Virus record (IMG/VR): IMGVR_UViG_2875703104_000002
DNA length: 37,887 nt
From: a virus
Taxonomy: Duplodnaviria > Heunggongvirae > Uroviricota > Caudoviricetes
Reading direction: 5' to 3' (one strand)
In this document: piece after piece, positions 1,857 through 37,887 of the stretch
How the letters are laid out: every line of letters begins with the position of its first letter
Position numbering within the stretch: position 1 is the stretch's first letter
Notes under the pieces: model-generated
Seen by the model: only the letters and a program-made list of their open reading frames with translations
What the model was told of the DNA's origin: nothing
Databases searched by the model: none
Made by a program: the position numbers and the translations under genes

Positions 1857-1906
1857 TGAAGCGGCGCACGAAAAACGCGAAAGCGTTTCACGATAAATGC
1901 GAAAAC
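1857..1906. mobile_element. attR: Mu right-end (attR) terminus with MuA-binding sites R1/R2; terminal dinucleotide 5'-TG at 1857-1858
   Basis: Sequence TGAAGCGGCGCACGAAAAACGCGAAAGCGTTTCACGATAAATGCGAAAAC matches the 50-bp Mu R-end used in MuA in vitro transposition (from memory); host DNA immediately to the left. Confidence 0.85.
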
Positions 1907-1933
1907 TTTAGCTTTCGCGCTTCAAATGAAACA

Positions 1934-1955
1934 GCAGTATTAATTACTGCTTTTT
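1934..1955. terminator. Hairpin (GCAGTA-ttaat-TACTGC) followed by T5, overlapping the mom stop codon; possible bidirectional terminator
   Basis: 6-bp inverted repeat with 5-nt loop at 1934..1950 followed by TTTTT on plus strand and preceded by an A-run (U-run on minus strand). Confidence 0.3.
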
Positions 1956-2697
1956 ATTCATTACATGGGGATCGCTTAGGGTATGGCTGAACCTTGAATA
2001 GTTTGGTATTTAGCCGCTTCCTTGCTCGCTTGTTCAGGAATCTGATGTAGCGATACTGATTAAATTTGTGCACCACGGCACGCTCTTTATTAGCCCGTAA
2101 ATACACGCCTCGTTGTCCACCTCGCTTAATCGCGTTCATCGTTATCTCGTGATACCACTCACCATCCAGCTCGTAGAATGTACTTTCATGACTGCCAATA
2201 AAATCAAAATTCGACGCCTGATACACAACGCCTGCGCGTCCGCAGCGTTCGTCTGCAAAGGACTGAACCCACTCCACTGACGGATACAGTAACCTGATGG
2301 TTTTCAGTGCATAACTGATGACCCGTGATTCAGAGTTGCGGGGCATGTCATCGTGTAGCCACATGCGGTTCAACTCCATATAGCCCCGGTTATCCGTTTC
2401 AAGCACGACACGACGACCTGAGTTGGGGTTAAGGGCATATCCCCACTGGAGAACGCCAACCAGATCGCGTCCGCTGAATACTCCCAGGTGGAGGTAAGAG
2501 TTATTCACAAAACGGCGGGAATAGTGCTTTGTCTGAATAATTGTGCGGGCCAGCCAACAGGATATGGTTTCAACGCGCAGCTCCTTTGAACCATAGCCAA
2601 CAATCTGGCCTTCATACTCAATAACGCACGGTTTCGTCAGAATGCGTGATTTCTTCTCTTTTCCCACAATGTTTCTCCGTGGGATGCTCGCAGGCAT
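1954..2697 (-). CDS. mom: Mom DNA-modification (anti-restriction adenine modification) protein; true start may be downstream of the ORF-track start, near the com stop
   Basis: 247-aa ORF as last gene before the R-end, overlapping the 3' end of the com zinc-finger ORF, preceded by a GATC-cluster regulatory region; matches Mu com-mom architecture. Confidence 0.8.
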
Positions 2698-2930: not shown

Positions 2931-3062
2931 TGTTCGCTACGGCTGGGTATCATTTCCGACGAGAATAAACAAAAATTAACCGAGTGGATGCTCTATGCGC
3001 AGAAGGTCGAATATACAGACACCTCCAGCCTGCCAGTAACGTTTCCCGAACAACCAGAATGA
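2931..3062 (+). pseudogene. 3' remnant of an alternative tail-fibre assembly gene (U'-like), convergent with U; N-terminal part missing
   Basis: Plus-strand ORF ends ...LTEWMLYAQKVEYTDTSSLPVTFPEQPE, resembling the conserved C-terminal motif of tail-fibre assembly proteins (compare U C-terminus ...[26 protein letters not shown]); only about 44 codons of homology, upstream part runs into the mom GATC region. Confidence 0.5.
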
Positions 3063-3090
3063 GAGAAGGCCCGGTATCGGGGCTTAATTT

Positions 3091-3618
3091 TTACTCTGGT
3101 TTTTGTGGCCATTCTGGCTTTGCTGTATCCACACGGCTGACCAGAACGCTGTAGCGTTCCCAGGCTTCCAGTCGTGTGCGCTCCTCATCCGTCGCCATAT
3201 TCAGCCTGACAGCGCGTTCCAGCTGCTGGATGACTGATTCAGCTTCGGAAAGCAATGCGGCCTTTTGTAATTCGGCCTGCTGTTGCTGCTCGTCTGCCGT
3301 ATAAATCCGTTTAACCACAGCTCCGTCCTTAAACAGCCACTTTCCTGAATCGTCGGCGCGACGATTGGCGGTGATATCGGGAACTTCGACAACGCTGTAG
3401 CCTGTAGGGTCCAGTGTTGAAGCGTCTCTGGTTACGGCCACAATAATATTGTTCTCGTCGTAAAGAATTTTTATTGTGTCCGGCTGAAAGTTCTTCACTT
3501 CCTCATACCAGTTTTTTCCGTCTTCTGACCACAGCCAGGCAACATTAAAATTTTTTGTTAGCTGATATTGCTCAACGGTTTTTGGATTGCCGGCGACAAT
3601 GTTTTTTAAATGCTGCAT
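3091..3618 (-). CDS. Tail fibre assembly protein (U-like, Tfa family)
   Basis: 175-aa ORF directly downstream of the tail fibre gene; C-terminal Tfa motif W-x-x-Y-x-x-L-x-x-VDT-x-x-PEWP. Confidence 0.8.
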
Positions 3619-3621
3619 AAA

Positions 3622-6266
3622 TTACACCTGTGACACGTTGTACCACGTTCCGTTAATTAACTTTTGTATTGGTCTGAATACTGCCGGATCGTCGCCATCA
3701 ACTTCGCCGACAATGCCAAGCCCGGTAATTACATGGCCTGATTTCTCATACATCACGCCTTTTTGCATGGTCTGAACAACACGTGTGCCAAGTCGGACAT
3801 CCCTCACGTATCGGCCATCAAAATTGCCGTAATCCGAGGGGTTAACGCGCCCCGTAATATTTACGGTTTTATTACTCTGAATGCTGCCGGAAACAAAGCG
3901 CATAACATGGACGTTATTAGCATAAACATCCAGATTACCATCACCATTTTGTTTAAAGCCCGTGTCATTATCACCCAAAACAATCGAATTACCGCCAAGA
4001 GCACTGGATGTTCCTATACCCAGAGCACCATTCAATTGACCACCAGATAACGGCAGTGCACCGACATCTCCCGCTGTAGGTTTTCGCGTTGTGGTATAAA
4101 ACTCAGACCAGTCAGCCTCGAATCCGTAACCGTCACGAGCAGAACGATAAAAAATACCACCGTTCTTATAATTAACGCGAAACTGGGCGGCGGGACAACT
4201 TCCTTCACCGATATTAAAATGAAGAATTAACGTTGATGCCCCACCAATATTTGCGTTATAGGCTCCGCTACTCCAGTTCCATCCAACGGCTTTATCATTC
4301 GCAACGGTGTCTCCTGTTTTTCCTGAAGCAAATGCACCAATATTTTTCGGCGTCAGGTTAATATCTGATGTTCCATCAAACGAAACGTTATTAATTTTAT
4401 TCCTGAAGCAAATGCACCAATATTTTTCGGCGTCAGGTTAATATCTGATGTTCCATCAAACGAAACGTTATTAATTTTACGGGCTGTTTTCAGCTTTGTT
4501 GCTGTCGCCGCATTGCCGGACAGTTCACCAGAAAGGCCAGCACTGAATGCCTGTTTCGCGCCCCATGTCTGGGCTTCGTCAATGATTGGTACTCGTCTTG
4601 TTGTGATCGTGCGGCTTCCCGGATTTCCTGAAATGCGCACCATAAAAAAGCGGTAGTTGGCTTTACTTACAGTGCTGCGCCATACATGCATTGAGCGCCC
4701 CGTACCGGAATCATCACTCGGACCAACTGCGATGTTTATCAGGTTGCCATCAATGACGCCCCAGTCCATACCGTCGGGAATATTGGTCATATTATCCAGC
4801 CGAACGGTTATCAGACTGCCCGGCACAAAATCGTAGGTCTGCCAGTCCAGACTGGATAGTTTTGCCACTGCGCCACCGATGCCCAGATTCAGGGGAAGTG
4901 AATAAGATGTGTAAACTTCCCGCCATTCGCTCCATGAGCTGCCGGTAAAAACGCGCTCAAACGTGCGACCTTTAAGGGTTGTACCTGTTCCGGCAGTTGT
5001 ATAACGCTGCCATACGTTAACACCATCAAAGCGCCTCAACACTTCCAGAATACCGAGGACTGTCACGCCGTTTCCGTCCAGTATTGGACCGTTGGTTGCT
5101 TTACCTGTAACGCTGTAAATACCTGGTGAAGTCACATCATTCAAATCCCCGTCGTAATAACGACTCTCTGACTGATGACCGACTCTTAACCACGGTTCCC
5201 ACTGTGGGTTCTCTGCATTCCATGTAGCAGAAAGGCAGCGAACATATACGTTCCCACGGCGGGTCGTATAGCGTTGCGTGCGTGAGTACCCACCACCCTC
5301 AAGAACTTCAAGGAGTCCCTGACCATAACTTCCTTCTTCCGGATAGTTGCGGTCAAATGAAGCGATAGAGCCACTACTGTTTCGCCATAAACCAAGATGC
5401 TCTGCGCCTCCTAGCGTGTTCAGGTCAATAGCTGTGCTCAGGGGGCGTGTTGCAGACTGAATCTGACGCCAGTAGCTCCACGGACCGTCTGAGCCATTCC
5501 AGGTGCCAGAAAGATTACGCATATAAACATTGCCAGTTCTGGTGGTATAACGCTGCATTCCGGAAAAATTACCGCCATTGAAGACCTCAAGAACACCGAC
5601 TGCACCGTCTTCAGGGAAATTTTTCTCCAGTGTTGCGTTGGAGGATGTGGATTTATACCAGACACCCACATAAGCCTTAACTGGACCAAATGTATTGATA
5701 TCAGCATCAACCGGCATTTCGCCGTTGTTTTTCATAAACGTCAGGCTGGTAACGCCAACATTGTCCAGAAAAGCTGATTTATCCTGGATATCTGCACCAT
5801 TCTGATTTTTCGCCAGACGTGAATTTGCGTTGTCATTTGCTGCCTTGACCGCTTTTGGCGTTGCGGCGAGTGCTTCGGATGTGCTGTTGGTAGCACTACT
5901 TAGCTGAACCAGCCCCTTTTTGCTCACGCTGGCATCATAAATACCCAGATTTTCACGTGCTGTGCGCTGTGCTGATGCCCCGGCAGTTTTTATTTCGCTG
6001 AGGTTATTTTTTATCAGCAGCGCGTTCTTGTTCATGATGGCTTTAATGGACAGTGCAAGCTGGTTTAATTTTGTTTTATCCGGTTGAATACCGGCTTCTT
6101 CCAGCGTGTTTAATAACTCCGCCTGCACAATATTAAACCAGTCCATGCCGGGCCATGTGATAACATTATTCCCGTCACCTTCTGAAAACCAGCGAACGAT
6201 AGCACTACGCTGGGCGGATACGGGCGGCATGACGGTTACGCCGCTGTCGTTATCAATATAAAACAT
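3622..6266 (-). pseudogene. Tail fibre protein (S-like), frameshifted by an 80-bp tandem duplication: 637-aa N-terminal ORF 4353..6266 plus out-of-frame C-terminal continuation 3622..4320
   Basis: Hand translation shows minus-strand frame continuous from 4398 to 3622 with no stop; ORF1 and that frame encode the same peptide KINNVSFDGTSDINLTPKNIGAFASG across the two repeat copies; removing one copy fuses them into about 854 codons. Confidence 0.8.
4320..4479. repeat. Perfect 80-bp tandem direct duplication (copies 4320..4399 and 4400..4479) inside the tail fibre gene
   Basis: Both copies read TTCCTGAAGCAAATGCACCAATATTTTTCGGCGTCAGGTTAATATCTGATGTTCCATCAAACGAAACGTTATTAATTTTA; 80 is not a multiple of 3. 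Confidence 0.97.
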
Positions 6267-6808: not shown

Positions 6809-7881
6809 TCAATTGTCCCCGGTGTTAACAGTTCCGTATTCTCCGAACGCTGGATCTCTGTCGGGAAACGCACTTCAAAATCATCCAGACCGGTAACACC
6901 TGCCACCGCACGGATAATACGGGAGGGGGCAAGTGCGCCGCCCGGCGTCACCTCATTAAAAAACATGGTATTAATGGCGTGGGTAATAGCCTGTTTCAGT
7001 TCGGCTGTCTTCGGTGATATATAAATCCGTGGATTTACCGGCTTTGCCTTTGGCGCAAATACCGTGACATTTACACCGTCAGGCTGCCCGACAATCAGGC
7101 CGGTTATCGGGTCAGTATGACCGGCGATATAATCCGCCACACGTTCCACGTCTGCCGGTTGTGGAAAAATATTGCTCCGGTTATCCATAACAAACGTCAC
7201 CCCGACTGTGCCACCGCCTTTCCATGTCGGAAAACACCAGGCACGGGTAACGCCGCTGACTTCACGCGCCCAGCGGACGTAATCAAACTGATTACCGCCG
7301 AACGGAGGATACTGGACACGATATTCCAGCCGTGACAGCAGCTCCGCTGCACTCTCAATATCAGCCCCACCGGAAAACCCTTTTACAGTGATGGCATCGG
7401 AAACAACACAGGCAACCGGGGTGATCAACGTTAAAAGGGTATTCTCACCGGTATTTCCTGCCTCACCGGCAGCCAGTGCGGTAACGGTAATTTCCGTCGT
7501 TCCTGCACGGTCAATCACAATGGCATCAGCCAGGCTGTAAACCACACCATCAGCACGCTGCCAGCGTGTACCGGCAGGAATGGTGGTCGCTGCCGATGTG
7601 GTGACAGTCAGCGGGCCGCTGGCGGCTGTCGCCTGTTTGCGGCGCACGCCCCAGAACCGGCAGTGCTCCAGCAACTCATCTTCATCTGCTGTCGACGGGA
7701 TAATCTGCCGTCCAACCCATGAAATATGCTCGTGACAACCGGCAGCAAGGCCCGCCTGAGCATAAGCAATGGCACTCAGCGTTTTTTCACGGGCCTGAGG
7801 CCAGCTACCCGGCAGGCGCTGTTCAATATTCTGTTCTGTACGGGCAATCAGCGATGATAATGTCGGTGGTGAATAAGCCAT
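6799..7881 (-). CDS. Baseplate J-like protein (Mu gp47-like)
   Basis: 360-aa ORF in the baseplate block; size and position match Mu gp47. Confidence 0.7.
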   Translation of the reverse strand: MAYSPPTLSSLIARTEQNIEQRLPGSWPQAREKTLSAIAYAQAGLAAGCHEHISWVGRQIIPSTADEDELLEHCRFWGVRRKQATAASGPLTVTTSAATTIPAGTRWQRADGVVYSLADAIVIDRAGTTEITVTALAAGEAGNTGENTLLTLITPVACVVSDAITVKGFSGGADIESAAELLSRLEYRVQYPPFGGNQFDYVRWAREVSGVTRAWCFPTWKGGGTVGVTFVMDNRSNIFPQPADVERVADYIAGHTDPITGLIVGQPDGVNVTVFAPKAKPVNPRIYISPKTAELKQAITHAINTMFFNEVTPGGALAPSRIIRAVAGVTGLDDFEVRFPTEIQRSENTELLTPGTIEWL

Positions 7882-8319
7882 TTAAACCCCGTTAAATGCT
7901 GCTTTAAACTCATAAGGAATAACGGAACCATCCGGTAATGTCAGTGCAATGTAGAGGTATAACCAGCCCTGATGTAACTGTTCCGCTCTGACGTTAATCG
8001 CACTTACCCGGCCCGCTGTTTTCAGCCATTCCAGCGCCTCTTCGGCATACCCTCTGGCGCGTTCCAGCGTATCCGGTGTGGCTTTTTCACGTGATAACAG
8101 CCACAACCGCGAACCGATGGGGCGGTCGCGGTAACTGTCCCCCCACCATCCACGGCGATCATCTGAACCATCCGGCAGCGTGTCAGAATCCAGCGCGCGC
8201 CGGTCGGTAAACAGGGAGATTGTCACATCGGTTGTCAGGCTGTCGTCGGTCAGCATATCAATGCCATCCTGTGCAATATCGCCGCGTCCGTTCGTCCAGA
8301 TAATGGCTAAATCGGTCAT
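7882..8319 (-). CDS. Baseplate wedge protein (Mu gp46-like)
   Basis: 145-aa ORF, translationally coupled within the baseplate block. Confidence 0.65.
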   Translation of the reverse strand: MTDLAIIWTNGRGDIAQDGIDMLTDDSLTTDVTISLFTDRRALDSDTLPDGSDDRRGWWGDSYRDRPIGSRLWLLSREKATPDTLERARGYAEEALEWLKTAGRVSAINVRAEQLHQGWLYLYIALTLPDGSVIPYEFKAAFNGV

Positions 8320-8909
8320 TGCATTGGCCCCGTGGTTCCGCCGCTGTCGCCACGGTGGATATGCTTATCCGTCGATTTGCCATTGATGATGGCATCCGGG
8401 GCAGTAATATTGCTGTCGAACTGGCTTTTACCTTTAACGCCCAGACCTTTCTGGATCTCAACGTCGCCGGTAAACGTGGTTCTGGGTGTGTCAACGGTCA
8501 TACTTTCATCAGCGTAAACCTCGACCGTTTTACAGGTAATGATGCAGCGTCCGTCCTTTGTCAGCCTGATACGATGCCCCTCATGGTGGTAAATGCCTGC
8601 ATCACCCGGTTCAAGATTTGTCGGGCGGTAGCGGCGGTCTTCCACCACAACGGCGATCCCCTGATCACGTTGTGCACCCACACAGGCAATCAGCGCCTCT
8701 GCGCCCGGCAGGGGAACGCTGAAATGTCCGTAATTTTGCAGGCGCTCCACTTCATCGGATTCCTCATCATCCAGCAGACCGACCTGCAGGTTCTGAACCT
8801 TTCGCCCGTCGTTAATCACGTTAACAACAGCGCGCGCAAGCATCAGGCGCACACGACGCATCAGCGGCGTCAGCAGGCGGTTCAGGGCGGAATCATTTAC
8901 TCTTTCCAC
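8316..8909 (-). CDS. Baseplate hub/spike protein (Mu gp45-like)
   Basis: 197-aa ORF; position and size match Mu gp45. Confidence 0.65.
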   Translation of the reverse strand: MERVNDSALNRLLTPLMRRVRLMLARAVVNVINDGRKVQNLQVGLLDDEESDEVERLQNYGHFSVPLPGAEALIACVGAQRDQGIAVVVEDRRYRPTNLEPGDAGIYHHEGHRIRLTKDGRCIITCKTVEVYADESMTVDTPRTTFTGDVEIQKGLGVKGKSQFDSNITAPDAIINGKSTDKHIHRGDSGGTTGPMQ

Positions 8910-11520: not shown

Positions 11521-14007
11521 TTACCAACCTGTAATGTAGTTATCGCCCGCGTAAATATTCAGCCCCATACCATCCTCGGTGACGCGGGAACTGGTCAGAC
11601 GTAACCCCTCGCCGAGTTCGACGCGCAACGAGGCTTCCGCATTGACTTTTTGTTCCTGCGGTTCCTTATCCGTGGCCGTCCATTTCTGATACAGGTCGGT
11701 TACAAAACCGCCCAGATACTCCCCGGCGACACTGCCCAGCGTGGCACCGGCAACCGTACCCAGCGGTCCGGCAAGGCTGCCAACGGCACCGCCGAGCCAT
11801 GCACCGGCTGTACTGCCAATTGCGCCTGCTTTTTCATGGGTTGACGCCTGTTCATCCATCAGGACGGGGGCAAGCTGGAGTGCCCCCATTACCGGGCCAC
11901 CCAGACGTGACAGGGCACGACCGGCACCTTTCCCCATCCAGCCCAGCGCCCCGGCACCTTTTGTCACAACCCGACCGATCGCACTGCCTGCAAGTTTGTT
12001 TCCGATACCGGAAAACCACCCGCCAACGGCACGCCCGGCATCAGCCAGCTTTCCGACCGTTCCCGTAACCAGTTGCCCGGCAGCACTGCCTGCAAGCCTG
12101 CTCAGAAGACCGGATTTACCGGGCAAAGGCTGTGGCGCAGGGCGTGGTATTACCGGCACGCCCGGAGATGGCACGGGCTGCCTGTTTCCGGCACCGGAAA
12201 GCAGTCTGCTGACAGTACGCCCGGCATCCGCCAGCGTTCCTGCCGCTCCCGTAACCTGCTGCGCGGCAGCGCTGCCTGCCAGCTTGCCCGGAAGACCGGA
12301 TTTAGCGGGCAAAGGGCGTGGCGCGGGGCGTGGTATTACCGGCACGCCCGGAGATGGCGCGGGCTGCCTGTTTCCGGCACCGGAAAGCAGTCTGCTGACA
12401 GTACGCCCGGCATGCGCCAGCGTTCCTGCCGCTCCCGTCACCTGCTGCATGGCAGCGCTGCCTGCAAGCCTGCCCGGAAGACCGGATTTACCGGGTAAAG
12501 GTCGTGGCGCGGGGCGTGCTGCTGCCGGAACGCTGGGTGGGGGTAATGGTGCAGGCCGTGCTGTTACCGGTACGCCGGGTGGGGGTAATGCCAGTACAGG
12601 GCGTGGTGCAGGTAATGCCAGCGGCTGTGGCCCGGACAGCAATAACGGCTGGCGGGGTAACAGCGTGGGCATTCTTCCGCCGCTCCGTACGCGACGACCG
12701 CCGCCACTCCCGTAGCCACCAAATCCACGGGGCCAGTTGATGACAAACACACGCTGAATGCCGATACCCTGCAACAGCGTCTCAGACGTCATGGCATCCG
12801 GGACCGGCAGGCCTGCCTGCCCACGTTTGCGGTTTCGCATCCAGCGCCACATACGACGCCCGGTTTTAAACGGATAACTGGCAACCTGCCATGAGGGTTT
12901 TGCCACGGCCCAGCCTGCTCTCAGGGCTTTATTGGCAAGCCAGACAGACACCAGAACAGCAGCCAGTTTTTTCAGGCTGACAATATTCTGGTCAACCCAT
13001 GCCAGCGCATCTTTACCCGGTTTCAGCCAGCGCCATAATTCCTGCGCCGCGATTTTTACCGTTCTGAACGTGGTCAGAAATTTCTGACCAATGTTTTCTG
13101 CCAGTGCGTCAAGTTCCCCGGATTTATCCGCCATGTCGTGCCAGTTAAGCACCCGGCGCATCTCGTTCTTGATTTCTTCAAAGGGGCCGCTGTTTGCCAC
13201 CTTTATGCGAAATTCAAGCAGGTTGGCTTCCATCTGTGCGAACATCCCGTCCCAGGAGTTCATCGCACTGGCTTGTGCACCTTTTGACTGTTCTGACAGC
13301 GTTCTGAATACCGTCAGAATGGATTTCATGCCCAGCTTGCCCTTTGTACCCAGATCACGGATTTTTTTAACGTCCGTTCCCGTTGCATCCGCCAGCGCCT
13401 GATAAACATTGATACCGTAACCGGTCAGCAGGTTGGCATCCGCCGCCGTGATTTGCTGGCGGGCAAACATCTGTTTCAGTTGCAGTGAGGCACCCTGTGC
13501 AGTGGGTAAATCCCAGCCGTGCATGGCCCCCTGATCCTGCAACATGGTGATGAACTGTTTCGTCTGTTCATCCGTCATGCCGAAGCCTTTCGACGAACGG
13601 ATCTCATCCAGAACACCACTCAGCCCCCACGTGGTGTCCTTCGCGTTCTGCTTCGCCCAGGCCATCATAGCCTGCGCTCTGACCTTATCGCCGTGATACA
13701 GCGAGTTCATAGCGATGATCTGCTGCTCACGCTGGGCGGCTGCACCAATAAACAGTTTATTGGCGGTGTAACCCACGCCAGCGATACCCAGCGCCCCGGC
13801 TGACAGCATTCGGAATGTACGGGTTGACAGAGAACCCATTCTGTCAATTGCACCAGAAACGCGCACAACCTCCATACGCAGGGCTCGCAGGGAACTCTGC
13901 CCACTACGGGACAGGGCGTTTATCTGGCTCGAATACTGGCGGGAACGCCGGGAAAGATTGCCATTAAGATCAATAATGACAGACGCCTTTAAGCGTTTCC
14001 CGGTCAT
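11521..14007 (-). CDS. Tail tape measure protein
   Basis: 828-aa ORF between tail chaperone and baseplate genes; Gly/Ala-rich C-terminal region, Pro-rich linker and internal 62-aa tandem repeats. Confidence 0.85.
11959..12516. repeat. Three tandem 186-bp (62-codon) repeats inside the tape measure gene (12331..12516, 12145..12330, degenerate 11959..12144)
   Basis: Near-identical DNA units starting TGGTATTACCGGCACGCCCGGAGATGG at 12145 and 12331; encoded units RPAPRPLP(G/A)KSGLPG(R/K)LAGSAA...PSPGVPVIP. Confidence 0.85.
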
Positions 14008-18016: not shown

Positions 18017-18050
18017 AACACATGCTCCTCCTTTTCCTTTAAATCAGGTT

Positions 18051-29963: not shown

Positions 29964-30511
29964 TGTGCCATCCTCCGTGTCTTTCTGGCATGGGCATAAG
30001 CCGCCATCATGGCATCATAGCCGCGCAGTTCACGACCGGACGGACTGACCGGCAATGGAAGCCCGTGACGGGAAAAGGCTTCACGAATACAGCGGATGTG
30101 CCACTGTTTGAGTGTTTCGAGGACTGTCAGCAGCGTGTCGCCATGACACCACGCCAGTGTGGAAACACCCTGTCCACCGTTGCGTTTCGCCGTCAGGCGT
30201 TGAACGTATCTGTCCAGCGCCACATCACTGCCGTCGGTAATAAACCCGTCTTCTGCCATCTGCTGCCAGACTTTGTACACCTTCTCGCGGGGCGTGACAT
30301 GTTCCTTAAAGCGTCGGCGTGGGTGTTTATTCTGCTTCTTAAAGCCGCGTTCTTTCATGGCATCGAGCACCTGTTCCAGTTGCGTGACCGTCAGCTCGCG
30401 GCAACTGATTTTGCCCGTTTTCTGCATCAGAAAAGCGCGGTAAGTGTCGTCGTCGAGTTGTAGCTCCCGACGGGCGACATGGATTAATTTAATCAGGGAT
30501 GTGCGACTCAT
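29960..30511 (-). CDS. gemA: GemA-like protein
   Basis: 183-aa basic ORF directly upstream of mor with 4-bp overlap. Confidence 0.7.
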   Translation of the reverse strand: MSRTSLIKLIHVARRELQLDDDTYRAFLMQKTGKISCRELTVTQLEQVLDAMKERGFKKQNKHPRRRFKEHVTPREKVYKVWQQMAEDGFITDGSDVALDRYVQRLTAKRNGGQGVSTLAWCHGDTLLTVLETLKQWHIRCIREAFSRHGLPLPVSPSGRELRGYDAMMAAYAHARKTRRMAQ

Positions 30512-30530
30512 GATCGTACCTCCGGAAAGA

Positions 30531-30550
30531 GGCGGTGCTGCAACACCGCC
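30531..30550 (-). other. Hairpin (GGCGGTG-ctgcaa-CACCGCC) in the 100-bp gap upstream of gemA
   Basis: 7-bp perfect inverted repeat; no clear U-run, so possibly an RNA processing/stability element rather than a terminator. Confidence 0.3.
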
Positions 30551-30613
30551 TGAATTTACACATCAATCAGAGTGGATTTTATGGAAAATAATGTTTTAGT
30601 TTCATTATTCATA

Positions 30614-30796
30614 TTATTCACCTTCACAATTCATGCACGCCGTGTCATCGCCCATATCGCAGTGGTTGCATTTCTGCCCACCACAATGAGGGCACTCTTT
30701 CAGATATTCAGGGTTTTCATTACCGCAGGTCGGACATTCCTGCTTCACAGTGGTAAATGTCCCCAGCCACGAATACGATGTTTCATTGTTTTCCAT
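30614..30796 (-). CDS. Small zinc-finger protein (60 aa)
   Basis: Eight Cys in CPTCG...CPHCG...CNHC...CMNC arrangement. Confidence 0.55.
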   Translation of the reverse strand: MENNETSYSWLGTFTTVKQECPTCGNENPEYLKECPHCGGQKCNHCDMGDDTACMNCEGE

Positions 30797-31313
30797 TGTT
30801 TACCTCCGCCTGTTTTTGCGCCCGGATAAATTCGTCAGAAAGGATTTCAGTCATGCGGCCTTGTGCGGGCGTCATCCCCGTCATGACGTAAATCACATCA
30901 CCAACACGGAACCACTGGAGAGGTCCGAATATTGTTGCGCTGAAATCCAGTCCCAGTGCGGGTAAGAGAGCATCTGTGCGGGCATAAGTGACCGGAATAT
31001 TCTCCTGCCATATTTTCGCCAGCTCTTTTGCCTGCTCCCTGAGATGAACAGGTATCCGCGAAGTTCTGGGCCTGCAACTATTACCTGATGCGGGCCGTTG
31101 TACGGTCCACAGCTCCCGCGAGAAAGGGCGCTCATTCCCCGGAAAGTTCACACCATGAAAATAACGCCCACCAATACCTGTGCTGAATACTGACCGGCAA
31201 CCACAACCCAGAACCTTATCAAGATGGCGGGCTTCTTCGCGTAGTTTCAGACAGTCCGCCATAAACTGGTCCCACGCCAGCAGTGCTGCGGGATTTGACG
31301 TTTTAAAAAACAT
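30783..31313 (-). CDS. Hypothetical early protein (176 aa from ATG at 31311..31313; ORF-track start is an upstream TTG)
   Basis: ATG overlaps the upstream stop (TGATG) and is preceded by SD GGAGG. Confidence 0.55.
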   Translation of the reverse strand: MFFKTSNPAALLAWDQFMADCLKLREEARHLDKVLGCGCRSVFSTGIGGRYFHGVNFPGNERPFSRELWTVQRPASGNSCRPRTSRIPVHLREQAKELAKIWQENIPVTYARTDALLPALGLDFSATIFGPLQWFRVGDVIYVMTGMTPAQGRMTEILSDEFIRAQKQAEVNNGKQ

Positions 31314-31843
31314 CACGCCACCTCCTGCACCGCTGCGGGAGCCGGAGAACAATCAAGAATGAGATAACGCAGTACATGGTCGGTGATATTCCAGGCGCTT
31401 GAACTGCAAATAAAACGCCCCAGCCGGATATCGATATAAGCCATCACAAAACGGGGCATTCCCTGTTCGCACATTCTGTTATCCACCTCAGCAACAATGT
31501 GGACTGACTCACAGGTCAGCACGCCCGTCGCAAACTCTTTTGCCAGCGCGGGGATGGTATTACCTTCCACCCAGGGTAATGAGCGACGCCAGTTGCACCA
31601 CACCGCATCATCAACAGCAGGCTGCTCAGTTGCGTTTCGTCTTACAGGCGGCGTCGGACGCGGGCGCGGAACGTCATAAAATCCGTTGCATTCGGTGAGC
31701 ACTCCGGCATCAACCGCATCACGCAGGAAATACACCATTGACGAGGGCAGCATATTCATTTTTTCAGCCAGAACTCCGCAGGTCAGGCGTCCGTAAGTCC
31801 GTAATAATGTGCTGACACCATTCAGAATTTTTGCATCAACCAT
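31313..31843 (-). CDS. Hypothetical early protein (176 aa)
   Basis: ORF downstream of gam in the semi-essential early region. Confidence 0.55.
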   Translation of the reverse strand: MVDAKILNGVSTLLRTYGRLTCGVLAEKMNMLPSSMVYFLRDAVDAGVLTECNGFYDVPRPRPTPPVRRNATEQPAVDDAVWCNWRRSLPWVEGNTIPALAKEFATGVLTCESVHIVAEVDNRMCEQGMPRFVMAYIDIRLGRFICSSSAWNITDHVLRYLILDCSPAPAAVQEVA

Positions 31844-31941
31844 GTTTTATTCCTCAGTAATCTGTTTCAGGCGCGAGCAATCCCCTGACGTATCGCGCCA
31901 TAATTAAAAGAATGTGAATTAATTAAATATTAATGGTGGTA

Positions 31942-32466
31942 TTAAATACCGGCTTCCTGTTCAAATGGAATAATAGAAAAATCCTCAATGCCTGATTTAA
32001 CTGTAATTCCGGCAACGCCTGCGACCGCTTTCGGTTCCAGTAAAATCGCTTCCTTGTTGATTTCCTGCTTCGTGCGAATAAAGCGTTGCAGGCCAAGACG
32101 CTCCAGCGTTTCCATCACTGCATCCATACCACGAATACTTACTGATGGCGGACGGACCCGCCACGATACATCACCGGTGACAAGATTCGCCGTCTTCACT
32201 TTGCCGCCGTTCGTCAGTTCGTCGCGGTTCGCTTCACACCATCCCTGAACGCCTTTTGAAAGGGTTTCAATATCGGTTTTAATCGGTGCAATCCGGGCTG
32301 CAAATTTTTCCGTAATTTCCGCGATGGCATCATTCATTTCCGTTTCCAGACGTGATGCTTCGCGCTGTAAATCCCCGATGCGTTTAATATCGGTAATCAC
32401 CGCATCGCGGTTTTGTGGCACATAAGCCGCTGCGGCACTTTTGATACGTTTTGCTGGTTTAGCCAT
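31942..32466 (-). CDS. gam: Gam, DNA-end-binding (Ku-like) protein that protects ends from RecBCD
   Basis: 174-aa ORF beginning MAKPAKRIKSAAAAYVPQNRDAVITDIKRIGDLQRE, recognised as Mu Gam. Confidence 0.85.
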   Translation of the reverse strand: MAKPAKRIKSAAAAYVPQNRDAVITDIKRIGDLQREASRLETEMNDAIAEITEKFAARIAPIKTDIETLSKGVQGWCEANRDELTNGGKVKTANLVTGDVSWRVRPPSVSIRGMDAVMETLERLGLQRFIRTKQEINKEAILLEPKAVAGVAGITVKSGIEDFSIIPFEQEAGI

Positions 32467-33225: not shown

Positions 33226-33495
33226 TTAATGTTTAACCGCATTCACCGGATGTGGTACTAAATCACATTCAGCCTCCATACCCACTTTCTTCATAGTGGT
33301 CAGCATCTCATCTTTGGCCTTTTTAATAATTTCAGGAGCCATAGTCAGGACGATATTTGCCAGTAAATCATGAGGCCCGGTATTTTCCGTTGGCGAGATA
33401 TCTGCAAGACATGCTTTTGCATCCAGAACTTCTCTGCGCCCATTGCAACCTTCACTACTTTCCAGCCATGTAAACTCAAAGATAACTTTTGCCAT
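33226..33495 (-). CDS. Hypothetical early protein (89 aa)
   Basis: ORF in the semi-essential region. Confidence 0.5.
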   Translation of the reverse strand: MAKVIFEFTWLESSEGCNGRREVLDAKACLADISPTENTGPHDLLANIVLTMAPEIIKKAKDEMLTTMKKVGMEAECDLVPHPVNAVKH

Positions 33496-33506
33496 TTTGC
33501 GTCTCC

Positions 33507-33761
33507 TTATTGATTCTGAATAACTGCGCTGGCTTTTACCTTCGCGCCTTTTACCTGCTTAAAGAAAACCGCGCTGCACCACGGACAACATGCAAAGGAG
33601 TCCCATACTTCATTTTCTGGTGAGCATTGCGTCATAATTTGCTCTTTGCATTTGGGGCAATTAAATGCAGTCAGAGCCACATTGTTATTCTGTACCCGTT
33701 TAACCCATTCAATATATTTTTCAGCTTTAGTACACATCGTTATCTCCAGATAATCTGGCAA
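33507..33761 (-). CDS. Zinc-ribbon early protein (84 aa)
   Basis: CPKCKEQ...CCPWCSAVF motif. Confidence 0.5.
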
Positions 33762-33967
33762 CCATTAAGACGGGCCGTCCATACAGAACGGGCCACCCCG
33801 GACTTATGCTCCATAATTCTGACCGCGTTTTTTACCAGTTCCACCGGTGGGTAAGTGATTTCAAGAATCGGACGCGCCACGCCGAGATATGATTCATTTA
33901 CATGACTCCCGCGCGCCTGTAACCAGTTCTGCGCATCCGTTGCCATTTTTATGTTTCGGGCTATCAT
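33740..33967 (-). CDS. kil: Kil-like protein (host killing/cell division inhibitor)
   Basis: 75-aa ORF immediately downstream of B, the position of Mu kil. Confidence 0.5.
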
Positions 33968-33982
33968 AATTTCTTCTCCTTC

Positions 33983-34921
33983 TTAATTACGCAGCAGCGT
34001 TGAAATATCAACGTCCAGGTCTAATTCACGGAAAGCCTGACGCAGATAATCTTCGTTAACACGCTCACCTTTACCGTGAGCCGTCATGGCGGCAAGGCGA
34101 AGTGAATGATTCAGAATGCGAAGCGCACCTGGTTTCTGCGCAATCTGCTGTAATAACTCCAGTTCATTTTCGCCGTTAATCTGCCAGGCATCCGCAATAG
34201 CTTTTACATCGGCTTTTTTGGTTTTATTAATTGCAGTGCGCTTTGCAATACGGGAAAACAGACGGGCAAATTCAACCGTTCTGTTACCCCCCGTCATATT
34301 TGAATAAACCCGGTGATTTCCCATCAGCACAAGGCCAGTGCGGGTTGATTCCTGTAACAGGCGGAGTTCTTCCAGAACTTCGGCACCAAGATGATCAGCT
34401 TCGTCGATGATAACCAGCCCCTGTGTACCTTCAAGGCGACGTCGCAGGGCGCGGGAGAGCGGCCCTTTACGGCGTGGTGCGTCATTCATTCCCAGCTCAA
34501 ACGCCAGTTCAGTAAGACATTCCAGAACGCTGGCACAGGATGGCGTAATGGTGATCATCCAGACATTGTTATTGGTGCGGCGATATTCACGGGCCGCTTC
34601 GGTTTTGCCCACACCAGGATTGCCACATACAACAGCAATACTTTCAGTCAGGCTGGCAAAACGCATACTTGTCCAGATTTGTTTTACCGTCTGCGTTTCC
34701 ACAAAGCGGGGCGGTTCAGGTAGTTCTGCAACTGCATGATATTTTTCCAGCCAGCGTTGCAGAATTTGTGAAACACGCTCGTTATCCCCGTTGTACTTAT
34801 CATTGATAAAACTACTGATAGTTCCGGTAGAAAGTCCGCTCTCAAGAGCAATTTGTTTAAAGGTGGTTTCTTCATTTTCTACAAGCGTGCGCAGTCCTGC
34901 GCGAATATCGGAAATATTCAT
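33983..34921 (-). CDS. B: Transposition target-DNA activator MuB (AAA+ ATPase)
   Basis: 312-aa ORF with Walker A GNPGVGKT and N-terminal HTH; directly downstream of the transposase. Confidence 0.9.
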   Translation of the reverse strand: MNISDIRAGLRTLVENEETTFKQIALESGLSTGTISSFINDKYNGDNERVSQILQRWLEKYHAVAELPEPPRFVETQTVKQIWTSMRFASLTESIAVVCGNPGVGKTEAAREYRRTNNNVWMITITPSCASVLECLTELAFELGMNDAPRRKGPLSRALRRRLEGTQGLVIIDEADHLGAEVLEELRLLQESTRTGLVLMGNHRVYSNMTGGNRTVEFARLFSRIAKRTAINKTKKADVKAIADAWQINGENELELLQQIAQKPGALRILNHSLRLAAMTAHGKGERVNEDYLRQAFRELDLDVDISTLLRN

Positions 34922-34959
34922 CTGAATAACCTCGTAATTAAATTTTGTTTAAACGTTAA

Positions 34960-36948
34960 TTAAATGGCTTTTTTACGTCTGTTCTGTTCCAGAATATCCA
35001 GCGAATGATTCAGATATTCATCACGCTCAGTTTCGTATTCATCATCACGCTCCTGATTCTTCACCCGTTCCATATTACCGGAAGGCCGGAAAATGCCGAC
35101 AATTCGTGATTCTGGTGCTTCAGGTTCGGCTATCTGCGGCAGCAGCTCTGCCACTTCCAGTGCATCCATTTGTTTCTGTGCCTTAATCGCTGCTTTCGTC
35201 GCAGATTTCAGTTGTTTCTGGCGGCGACGATATTCACGGCCTGCCGCAGCATCATTAAACGCAACAGGTGCCAGACATTCCGCTTCACAGATAAACCGAC
35301 CGTCCAGGGTGTAGCAATAAACCGTGCTGTGTAACTGCTGTGGATCAAATCTGACCACAACTTTTTTCACTCCGGCATTCATTAACGCCATGTTGTAATA
35401 AACGTTTTTCGCACCTTTAAGGGAGCCGCCAACTTTAAGCGCGAACTCGCCTTTACGTGAAACGTTCACCGCCTCGGCAGGCAGTAACAGCATCCGTTTT
35501 TGCTCTTCGGTAGGCTTACGCACAATCGTTCTGGCGTATTCACGCTCAAAAACGTCATCAAACGAAAGTTTGCCTCCGCACATTTCTGTTTCACGGCCTG
35601 TTCTGGCATTGAACATCGCCACACCTTCGGCAAGGGTTTTCAGAAACAGCTCTGCATCAACAGCGCGGTCGCCATAGTTATCAGGTTTTGCCTGCGGATT
35701 AGGCCCCGTATATGCGCCAGCCAGTGCCGGATGCTTATCAACGTATTCCTCAAGCCCACCAACACCGAAAGCACGTTCAACAGGTTTTGCCTGGCCCCAG
35801 CCTTTACCAGCAACAACGCTTGTCCAGTGCATTTTCGCCCCCATCAGTAAAAACAGTCCCTTTGGGTCGTCCTCTTTTACCTTAAAGCGGTAGCGATTGG
35901 GCGCGCCTCCCGTCAGCCATTTATTCGCAGCACCACGGGTGTTATCAATGGTGATGTGAAAATCCTCCGGGATACCGTAGCGAGTCACAACATCCATGAA
36001 CGAGAGGCGAATTGAATCAATGTTCTCGCTCACATCGCAGCGCCAGCCCAGAATTTTTCGGGTTTTCACATCCTGCCAGAACCATGTTTTCGGGCGGATC
36101 ACATCACCGTTAAACCAGCGTACAAAGACGTTATGCAGATAACCGTCGCCGTTGATCCACTGCATGGCGTCCAGGTGTTCCACAGTTCGCTGCTGTGCCG
36201 GTATCAGATGCATCAGTGCATGTTCACCTTCACGGCAGGCAACAACCATTGCCTCGTCCAGTTGCTGAATCCGGCGAAAGGCCGTGGCACGGGAGGGAAT
36301 ACTCCAGCCATGCTCGCGGGCTGCCAGTTCCAGACGCTCATAACATTTGCGGAAGGCGGGTTTTTCCGGTCGCAGATAATCTGCAATCAGAAACTGCCAG
36401 GCATCCTCGTCAAATTCACTTTTGTGAACATTGCGACGGGATGCTCCACGTCCATCAACAAGTGCAGCCGCCCAGTCAGGCTTCGCAAGCTTCTGTACCT
36501 GGTAATACTTGTCCCGCAAAGTGGATGCGCTGACCTGGTAATGCCCTGCAACGGTCGCAAAAGCCGTTTTCGTTGAAATCCCCTGGTTCAGCATTTCGTC
36601 TGCAGCCTGAACAGCAGGCAACCATTTTTCAGCAAGTCTGCGCTGGGAATCGCTGGCGTTATCCCATTTGCTCCACAGTGCCTCACGATCATAATCATGG
36701 GCTTCCAGCGTGGGGCGGGCGATTTCAAAATACCCCTGACTTGTTTCAATTCTCCCTTGTTGCAACAGAATTTCAGCACGTAATGCGACAGGGAATGATT
36801 TGATATTGAATTCAAATGATACACCTTTAGTCCCTGCAACCTGCCTGAACTCCCAGCCTTCTCTTTGTGCCTTACGTGTAATGTTAGTGGCTTGCTTTGG
36901 TAAACCTGCCAAACCGAGCAACTCTTTTGCTGTATACCATTCTTTCAT
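34960..36948 (-). CDS. A: DDE transposase MuA
   Basis: 662-aa ORF; N-terminal winged-helix domain ([30 protein letters not shown]) is paralogous to the N-terminus of the adjacent repressor ([30 protein letters not shown]); acidic C-terminal tail. Confidence 0.95.
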
Positions 36949-36955
36949 AGCGCAC

Positions 36956-37177
36956 CTAGTATCGAGACGGCCAAATATCTTGCGGTGTCATTCCCAGTGC
37001 ATCTGCAATGATTTTCTCCGCTTTCGGATATCTCTTATCCAAAGCATTTTTTAATGTTGAAGACGAAAGATGATTAGATCTTCCCAATTCAGCTAGTGAC
37101 ATATTGCGTTTTCGTAGCTCTGCAACGATGTCAGCTCTGTGCCAATCTTGGCGGTTAGTTCTTTTATTCATATGCAT
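36956..37177 (-). CDS. ner: Ner, early negative regulator (D108 type)
   Basis: 73-aa ORF with [13 protein letters not shown]...WPSRY motifs, first gene of the early operon, preceded by an 11-8-11 palindromic operator. Confidence 0.85.
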
Positions 37178-37362
37178 TTCATGTAATCCTTTCAGATTCC
37201 CCCGTGAGCTACGCTATAAAGTAGCTCACGGCATATCGTGCAATGTAGTGTGGAATCATTTTTAAATCAATAGTGATTTGAAAGGATTTATCATGATTTC
37301 ATATAACAGCATGATTTTTATATGAATTTATTTTGTCTCTATTGAAATCACTAGGATTTTAA
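37178..37362. promoter_or_regulatory. Immunity/operator region between ner and c (divergent Pe and Pc promoters, repressor and Ner operators)
   Basis: 185-bp AT-rich divergent intergenic region with repeated TTGAAA/TTTCA-type motifs and a perfect palindrome. Confidence 0.6.
37202..37231. promoter_or_regulatory. Ner operator: 11-bp inverted repeats CCGTGAGCTAC / GTAGCTCACGG separated by 8-bp AT-rich spacer
   Basis: Perfect palindrome 25-54 bp upstream of the ner start; matches the architecture recalled for the D108 Ner site. Confidence 0.6.
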
Positions 37363-37887
37363 ATGATGTCTTTTGAAATCAAAGAATGGTTTAATGCGAA
37401 AGAGCTGGAAGGGATGCCTGGTGTACCAAAGTTGGCGACTAACATTACCAGGAAAGCTGTGGCGGAAGATTGGGTAAAACGTCAGCGTCACGGTGGGAAA
37501 GGTGTCGCTTATGAGTATCACATCAACAGTCTGCCAGAAGAAACACGCAGGGCCATTAAAGGAGCCTCACTTTCTGATAAACCAGTGCATACATCAATCG
37601 TCCATACAGTTGATGAGAGGCTAATTTATGCAATGAGTTTCTTAACACCAGATGAGCAGGCCGCAGCAGTGGAGATCATTCGTGTAGCAGGGATTAAAGG
37701 ACTTATGCCTACAATTGTCAGTAAAGATAAGGCATTAGAGGCATTAGGGATTACTGTGGAGCAACAGAAAACCCTGCAAACTCTTCAGGCATTACCACCG
37801 GAAAAAGTGAGAGAGATTTTGTCTCAGTATGAAGGCAAAGAACATAATTTCCCTGTAAGAGAAAACGATGTAAAGAAAGCTGTATAA
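37363..37887 (+). CDS. c: Lysogeny repressor c (D108-like)
   Basis: 174-aa ORF divergent from ner; N-terminal DNA-binding domain paralogous to the MuA N-terminus; C-terminus ...VKKAV. Confidence 0.8.
   Translation: MMSFEIKEWFNAKELEGMPGVPKLATNITRKAVAEDWVKRQRHGGKGVAYEYHINSLPEETRRAIKGASLSDKPVHTSIVHTVDERLIYAMSFLTPDEQAAAVEIIRVAGIKGLMPTIVSKDKALEALGITVEQQKTLQTLQALPPEKVREILSQYEGKEHNFPVRENDVKKAV

Follow-up and report, generated by a model that had tools for sequence, protein, structure and literature searches.

The DNA analysed here is a stretch of 37,887 nucleotides (the window) that runs from the E. coli chromosome into a Mu-family prophage. Host sequence occupies positions 1-1856, where emrD, yidF, ysdE and yidG are 100% identical to many complete genomes, and the insertion site is the emrD / yidF / yidG region of the chromosome. 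The prophage spans 1857-37887 in reverse orientation, and its minus strand carries, in order, mom, then the tail, head, lysis and early genes, and then B, A and ner. Because the window ends exactly at the stop codon of the repressor gene c (37887), attL is absent from it, about 340 bp including that end falling beyond. The last kilobase of the prophage holds c and ner in divergent orientation, with the transposase gene A directly beyond ner and a long palindrome between ner and c.

Genes of the immunity region

The repressor gene c (37363..37887, plus strand) encodes 174 aa and ner (36956..37177, minus strand) encodes 73 aa, the reading frames and lengths that an earlier note on this DNA, made from the sequence alone, had given them. 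Both are of the D108 type in protein alignment: the repressor is identical to D108 c at 173 of 174 residues and 31% identical to Mu c, while Ner matches D108 Ner at every position (73/73) and Mu Ner at 49%. Pfam places c in HTH_Tnp_Mu_1 (E 3e-52, 177 bits, gathering cutoff 23.3) and Ner in HTH_35, the Mu Ner family (E 1.2e-28, 99.3 bits, gathering cutoff 25). A sequence search of the PDB matched the N-terminus of c to the I-alpha domain of MuA (1tns) and to the DNA-binding domain of Mu c (1g4d), and Ner to the NMR structure of Mu Ner (1neq/1ner) and to the Ner-like EnrR (7f9h). Ner is predicted to be a Cro-like negative regulator of early and repressor transcription.

The transposase A (34960..36948, minus strand; 662 aa), identified by its reading frame, protein alignment and Pfam, contains DDE_2, HTH_Tnp_Mu_2 and Mu-transpos_C, together with HTH_Tnp_Mu_1 over residues 8-141 (142.5 bits, cutoff 23.3). 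It agrees with D108 A at 660 of 662 residues, with no difference in residues 1-90, and is 93.4% identical to Mu A; divergence from the latter is confined to residues 1-71, residue 71 being the last N-terminal difference, and the two proteins are identical beyond. The adjoining B (34921-33983, minus strand) is identical to D108 B at 311 of 312 residues, and c, ner, A and B are all intact full-length reading frames whose products are 99.4-100% identical to the D108 proteins.

The D108-specific 5' part of A (36760..36948, minus strand) corresponds to the I-alpha domain, which binds operator and enhancer and is paralogous to the N-terminus of c. A local protein alignment of the two N-termini scores 164 across 60 residues, and the paralogy persists in the DNA as a 49-nt inverted pair, 71% complementary, formed by 36900-36948 and 37378-37426. 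The earlier note was right in calling the A N-terminus both paralogous to the repressor and divergent from Mu. Judging by its title, as cited in PMC3820752, the 1986 study of Mizuuchi, Weisberg and Mizuuchi had already described the repressor and transposase N-termini as alike in both D108 and Mu.

At the nucleotide level, 36900-37887 is 99.9% identical to D108, 100% to Mu_3F6 and 85.9% to SfMu, and blastn of the same interval against phage Mu returned no match. All 490 sites in the immunity region that discriminate D108 from Mu are D108-like, with 0 Mu-like. The alignment of 36900..37887 and the A N-terminus with Mu and D108 is D108-type throughout, a Mu-type outcome was not seen, and the claim that the immunity region is D108-type rather than Mu-type stands.

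The palindrome and candidate operators between ner and c

Upstream of ner lies a perfect 11-bp inverted repeat (37202..37231), the putative Ner operator. Its arms, CCGTGAGCTAC at 37202-37212 and GTAGCTCACGG at 37221-37231, are 100% complementary over their 11 nt and are separated by 8 nt (GCTATAAA), and its near edge at 37202 is 24 nt upstream of the ner ATG (37177). The repeat and its AT-rich spacer are just as the earlier note had described them, and its attribution to D108 architecture was also correct, since the same 30-mer occurs in the D108 record (position 996); Mu_3F6 has it as well, and Mu does not. The window contains perfect inverted repeats of 11 bp or more, with a spacer of 0-20, at only 3 places. 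The other two, near 18049 and 28337, follow the major head gene and mor, where the D108 and Mu records place rho-independent terminators. In sequences simulated from the window with a first-order Markov model, such repeats averaged 0.25 (maximum 3), and the palindrome exceeds chance expectation.

Related prophages preserve the arrangement. In SfMu and RM13745, where the region is about 87% identical, both arms are unchanged and 3 of the 8 spacer bases have changed. E. coli SA53-3 has TCAGCTAC-GCCGCAAG-GTAGCTGA at the equivalent position, with paired changes in both arms and the 8-bp spacing kept, which indicates that dyad symmetry and spacing have been retained despite changes on both arms. 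From the biochemistry of D108, we take the palindrome to be a binding site of D108 Ner, which reportedly protects it (Tolias and DuBow 1985; Kukolj et al. 1989; Benevides et al. 1994, the last cited in PMC10434027). The Ner of this prophage would be expected to bind it too, repressing early and repressor transcription.

In one respect the comparison drawn in the earlier note has to be corrected. It held that Mu Ner uses tandem 12-bp direct repeats, but the Mu sequence has its 12-mers in inverted orientation, one on the plus strand (1029-1040) and the other on the minus strand (1047-1058), reading AGCTAGCTAAGT and the reverse complement of ATTTAACTAAGT. Unlike the site in the window, the Mu Ner site thus has imperfect dyad symmetry, its two ANYTARCTAAGT 12-mers standing 6 bp apart, and a search for that pattern across the window found none. 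Since the Mu 12-mers are inverted, both phages would use dyad-symmetric Ner sites that differ in sequence and spacing.

From the Ner site to the start of c runs a dense array of KGATTT/AAATCM motifs (37253..37381), a candidate operator cluster for the c repressor and for A I-alpha, for which it may be the enhancer. Exact KGATTT matches number 8 in 37264-37381, compared with 105 across the whole 37.9-kb window. D108 has exactly the same sequence between ner and c, and SfMu and RM13745 retain the motif blocks. By analogy, the array would supply the operators of c and the transposition enhancer recognised by A I-alpha. With the criteria used, a consensus promoter scan of 36900-37887 placed no sigma-70 site between ner and c; by eye, TTGATT-17-TACATT on the minus strand, just upstream of the palindrome, may be the early promoter, and TTGAAA-18-TATAAC on the plus strand may be the repressor promoter. 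The exact IHF consensus WATCAANNNNTTR has no match anywhere in the window.

The junction within A and the patchwork beyond it

Nucleotide homology to Mu begins abruptly at window position 36760, which corresponds to Mu 1519 and to about codon 63 of A. The BLAST breakpoint, a five-way alignment and the protein view together place the cassette junction at 36745..36765 (minus strand), within A codons ~63-67. In the five-way alignment (Mu, D108, SfMu, SA53-3 and the window) all sequences converge at one point, from about column 204. The junction is thereby common to the four immunity types compared (Mu, D108, SfMu and SA53-3), and it coincides with the end of the I-alpha domain, the PDB chain 1tns having 76 residues.

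That D108, SfMu and SA53-3 share this junction argues for a standard cassette boundary rather than a joint particular to this prophage. The window, moreover, keeps following D108 past it, with 48 D108-like against 11 Mu-like sites in the next 3.3 kb (33476-36760), which speaks against a prophage-specific joint formed by D108-to-Mu recombination. We regard the junction as the point at which an exchangeable immunity cassette normally ends on its right-hand side, and its position inside the transposase gene would follow from the need for A I-alpha to recognise the repressor's operators. The earlier note had proposed a mosaic boundary in the 5' part of A; the location was well chosen, but the same boundary with Mu is found in D108 itself. 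It was already implicit in the 1986 comparison of Mu and D108, as far as the title cited in PMC3820752 tells.

Outside the immunity region the prophage is a patchwork. In collinear blocks, 330 discriminating sites are D108-like and 312 are Mu-like, in alternating runs that include a D108-type allele of gene 7 (33226-33495) and a long Mu-like block at ~30110-32050, with 54 consecutive Mu-like sites at 31400-31775. One structural trait is clearly of the Mu type, namely the right end (attR; 1857..1976, minus strand), which begins TGAAGCGGCGCACGAAAAACGCG and directly follows mom, the D108-specific gene 56 of the mom-attR interval being missing; the alignment with Mu extends to Mu 36717 (window 1857), whereas that with D108 ends at D108 36636 (window 1976). 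The 'Mu-like remainder' of the earlier note is an apt description of this end but not of the rest, which is mixed. A nearly even division of sites over many alternating runs points to a single gene pool whose members have exchanged segments repeatedly, and not to one graft, and the prophage thus appears to be one more recombinant from the common Mu/D108 pool.

Several other differences lie along the prophage. An insertion of ~670 bp separates the terminase genes, and the reading frame of the terminase large subunit is intact (573 aa). Mu 7672-8149, which covers the region of genes 14 and 54 next to gemA on its upstream side, is missing at 30594/30595, and the window has 45 bp in a slot that holds 611 bp in D108. 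Mu_3F6 and 22KM0354 carry antisense reading frames there, one of them for a DUF2513 protein, which suggests that the slot is a variable accessory site of the early region. Searches of Pfam and PHROGs with a 162-aa antisense reading frame found nothing, and its single PADLOC match, to Csx15, is marginal (E 0.008). Within the tape measure gene, a 186-bp tandem repeat (12031-12518; 2.6 copies, 91% matches) has one extra unit of ~79% identity, about 62 codons, relative to Mu and D108; with the additional unit the tape measure protein would be longer, and the tail possibly so too. The invertible G-segment and tail-fibre region (2936-5788) is largely unrelated to those of Mu, D108 and Mu_3F6, with patches of 68-89% identity, and an S-like tail fibre reading frame at 4353-6266 encodes 637 aa. 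The divergence of this region suggests that the host range may differ.

The D108 immunity cassette and its relatives

We consider it almost certain that the Muvirus prophage in the emrD-yidG region of E. coli has, at 36760-37887, the immunity cassette of the Mu family in the form of the D108 allele. Five parts would make up the cassette: c, its operators, the divergent early and repressor promoters, Ner with its palindromic operator, and the first ~65 codons of A. Its left boundary, like attL, falls beyond the end of the window. Their proposed interplay is based on identity with D108 and analogy with Mu. Bound to the AT-rich KGATTT operators, c would hold the early promoter off, maintaining lysogeny and conferring immunity to superinfecting D108-type phages. 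Once early transcription begins, a Ner oligomer would occupy the 11-8-11 palindrome, which separates the early promoter from the ner start codon, and by lowering repressor and early transcription would commit the phage to the lytic cycle. A paralogue of the DNA-binding domain of c, the A I-alpha domain would also recognise the operator DNA of c, which would then serve as a transposition enhancer. Since a match is needed among c, A I-alpha and the operators, as well as between Ner and its palindrome, the parts would be expected to move as one exchangeable unit. We also infer, on what we regard as sound grounds, that the prophage would be heteroimmune to Mu, its lysogen resisting D108 and admitting Mu, given that c and the operators agree with those of D108 and that homology to the Mu operators is lacking.

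The abrupt start of Mu homology, the Mu-type right end without gene 56 and the long Mu-like block would also fit a recent graft of the D108 immunity region onto a Mu genome, by a crossover in the 5' part of A, as the earlier note implied. Such an origin seems unlikely to us, given that D108, SfMu and SA53-3 have exactly this junction with Mu, that the sequence past it remains D108-like for 3.3 kb and includes the gene 7 allele, and that a prophage of E. coli 22KM0354 likewise joins D108 immunity to a right end without gene 56; the site counts, too, argue against the whole remainder of the genome from A codon ~65 clustering with Mu. We are similarly doubtful that the prophage is a defective remnant whose immunity region no longer functions. 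The loss of Mu 7672-8149, the insert between the terminase genes and the position of attL outside the window could be taken in that sense, but c, ner, A, B, the right end and the large terminase reading frame are all intact, and the deleted stretch belongs to a variable accessory part of the early region that differs in Mu_3F6 and 22KM0354 as well.

A further alternative concerns the palindrome, whose chief role might be that of a hairpin in the leader RNA at the 5' end of the early (ner-A-B) transcript, affecting mRNA stability or attenuation, for instance, and not that of a protein operator. The minus-strand transcript could indeed form an 11-bp stem with an 8-nt loop (-23.4 kcal/mol, z = -4.65, with 0 of 200 shuffles as stable), and constant arms around a variable loop, like the two-sided change in SA53-3, suit a hairpin and a dyad operator equally well. 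We nevertheless give this explanation very little weight. At the equivalent place Mu, with a different Ner, has a different, imperfect dyad with another spacing, as would fit protein-specific recognition, and a role confined to RNA sits poorly with the binding of D108 Ner to this site, which biochemical work is reported to have demonstrated. No run of T follows the stem on either strand, and a function as an intrinsic terminator was rejected on that ground. Operator and hairpin roles are not mutually exclusive.

As the D108 allele of an immunity cassette, the feature is one already known, and the observation is correct but ordinary. The control region of D108 was sequenced in 1986 and its genome has been public since 2009. 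Assignment to the D108-type immunity group predicts which Mu-family phages can superinfect the strain and which repressor and Ner specificities apply, and its main value is correct annotation. A broader regularity is, in our judgement, somewhat favoured by the comparisons: among E. coli Mu-family prophages, c, its operators, ner and A I-alpha would be swapped as a block through a junction at A codons ~58-67, with at least three types (Mu, D108/SfMu, and SA53-3 with TCAGCTAC-N8-GTAGCTGA), the D108 type being the commonest in nature. Were that general, the window would be one further example, and any novelty would lie in the rule and not in the locus.

Among 5426 complete E. coli genomes, 45 have a D108-type region (80-100% identical) and 25 the Mu type by a criterion of at least 80% coverage, many of the Mu-type carriers coming from laboratory lineages such as BW2952 and W derivatives. 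None of the complete E. coli genomes is identical to the window, the best reaching 99.8% over the 1188-bp region, and the best 25-kb match among them shows ~98% identity over 94-97% of the query.

Phage Mu (AF083977) has the same general plan, with c leftward, ner-A-B rightward, a Ner dyad just upstream of ner, paralogous c and A N-termini and the same Pfam families; it differs in the size of c (196 aa) and Ner (75 aa), and has no detectable nucleotide homology to the window before A codon ~63. A third immunity type is seen in SA53-3 (1279-2212 of the locus examined), where c has 171 aa and Ner 72 aa and the junction in A is the same. FDAARGOS_1303 (1488-2319 of the locus examined) has a D108-like Ner of 70 aa and, upstream of ner, a half-site GGCTAGCTAAGT that agrees with the Mu 12-mer at 11 of 12 positions.

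Closer to the window are SfMu (KP010268) and the RM13745 prophage, whose D108-related immunity regions are 85.9-87.1% identical to it, with the same A junction, identical palindrome arms and a Ner that differs at 1 residue; they depart from it in the spacer (TCTGCAAA rather than GCTATAAA) and in a diverged operator array and C-terminal half of c. The same D108-like pattern emerges from published values for SfMu, in which c is 89% and Ner 98% identical to D108 (PMC4406740). Mu_3F6 (LR595867) is closer still, at 100% over 36900-37887 and 98.1% over the first 7.3 kb, but has a gene-56-like reading frame at its right end (36587-37033) and an antisense reading frame (8012-8371) where the window has its deletion.

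The sole difference in c from the D108 record is at residue 50 (window 37510-37512), which is Tyr in the window, Mu_3F6, E92, E24377A, 22KM0354, RM13745, SfMu and SA53-3 and Asn in the D108 record; as a speculation, the D108 that was deposited may have acquired this change in the DNA-binding domain of c in the laboratory, possibly as a cts allele. D108 (GQ357916 / NC_013594), which the ICTV assigns to the species Muvirus mu, differs from the prophage in having gene 56 and another G segment, in lacking the ~670-bp terminase insert, and at about half of the D108/Mu-discriminating sites outside the cassette, which are Mu-like in the window. Apart from the one residue in c and two in A, its left-end control region of c, ner and A, its palindrome and its junction with Mu are as in the window.
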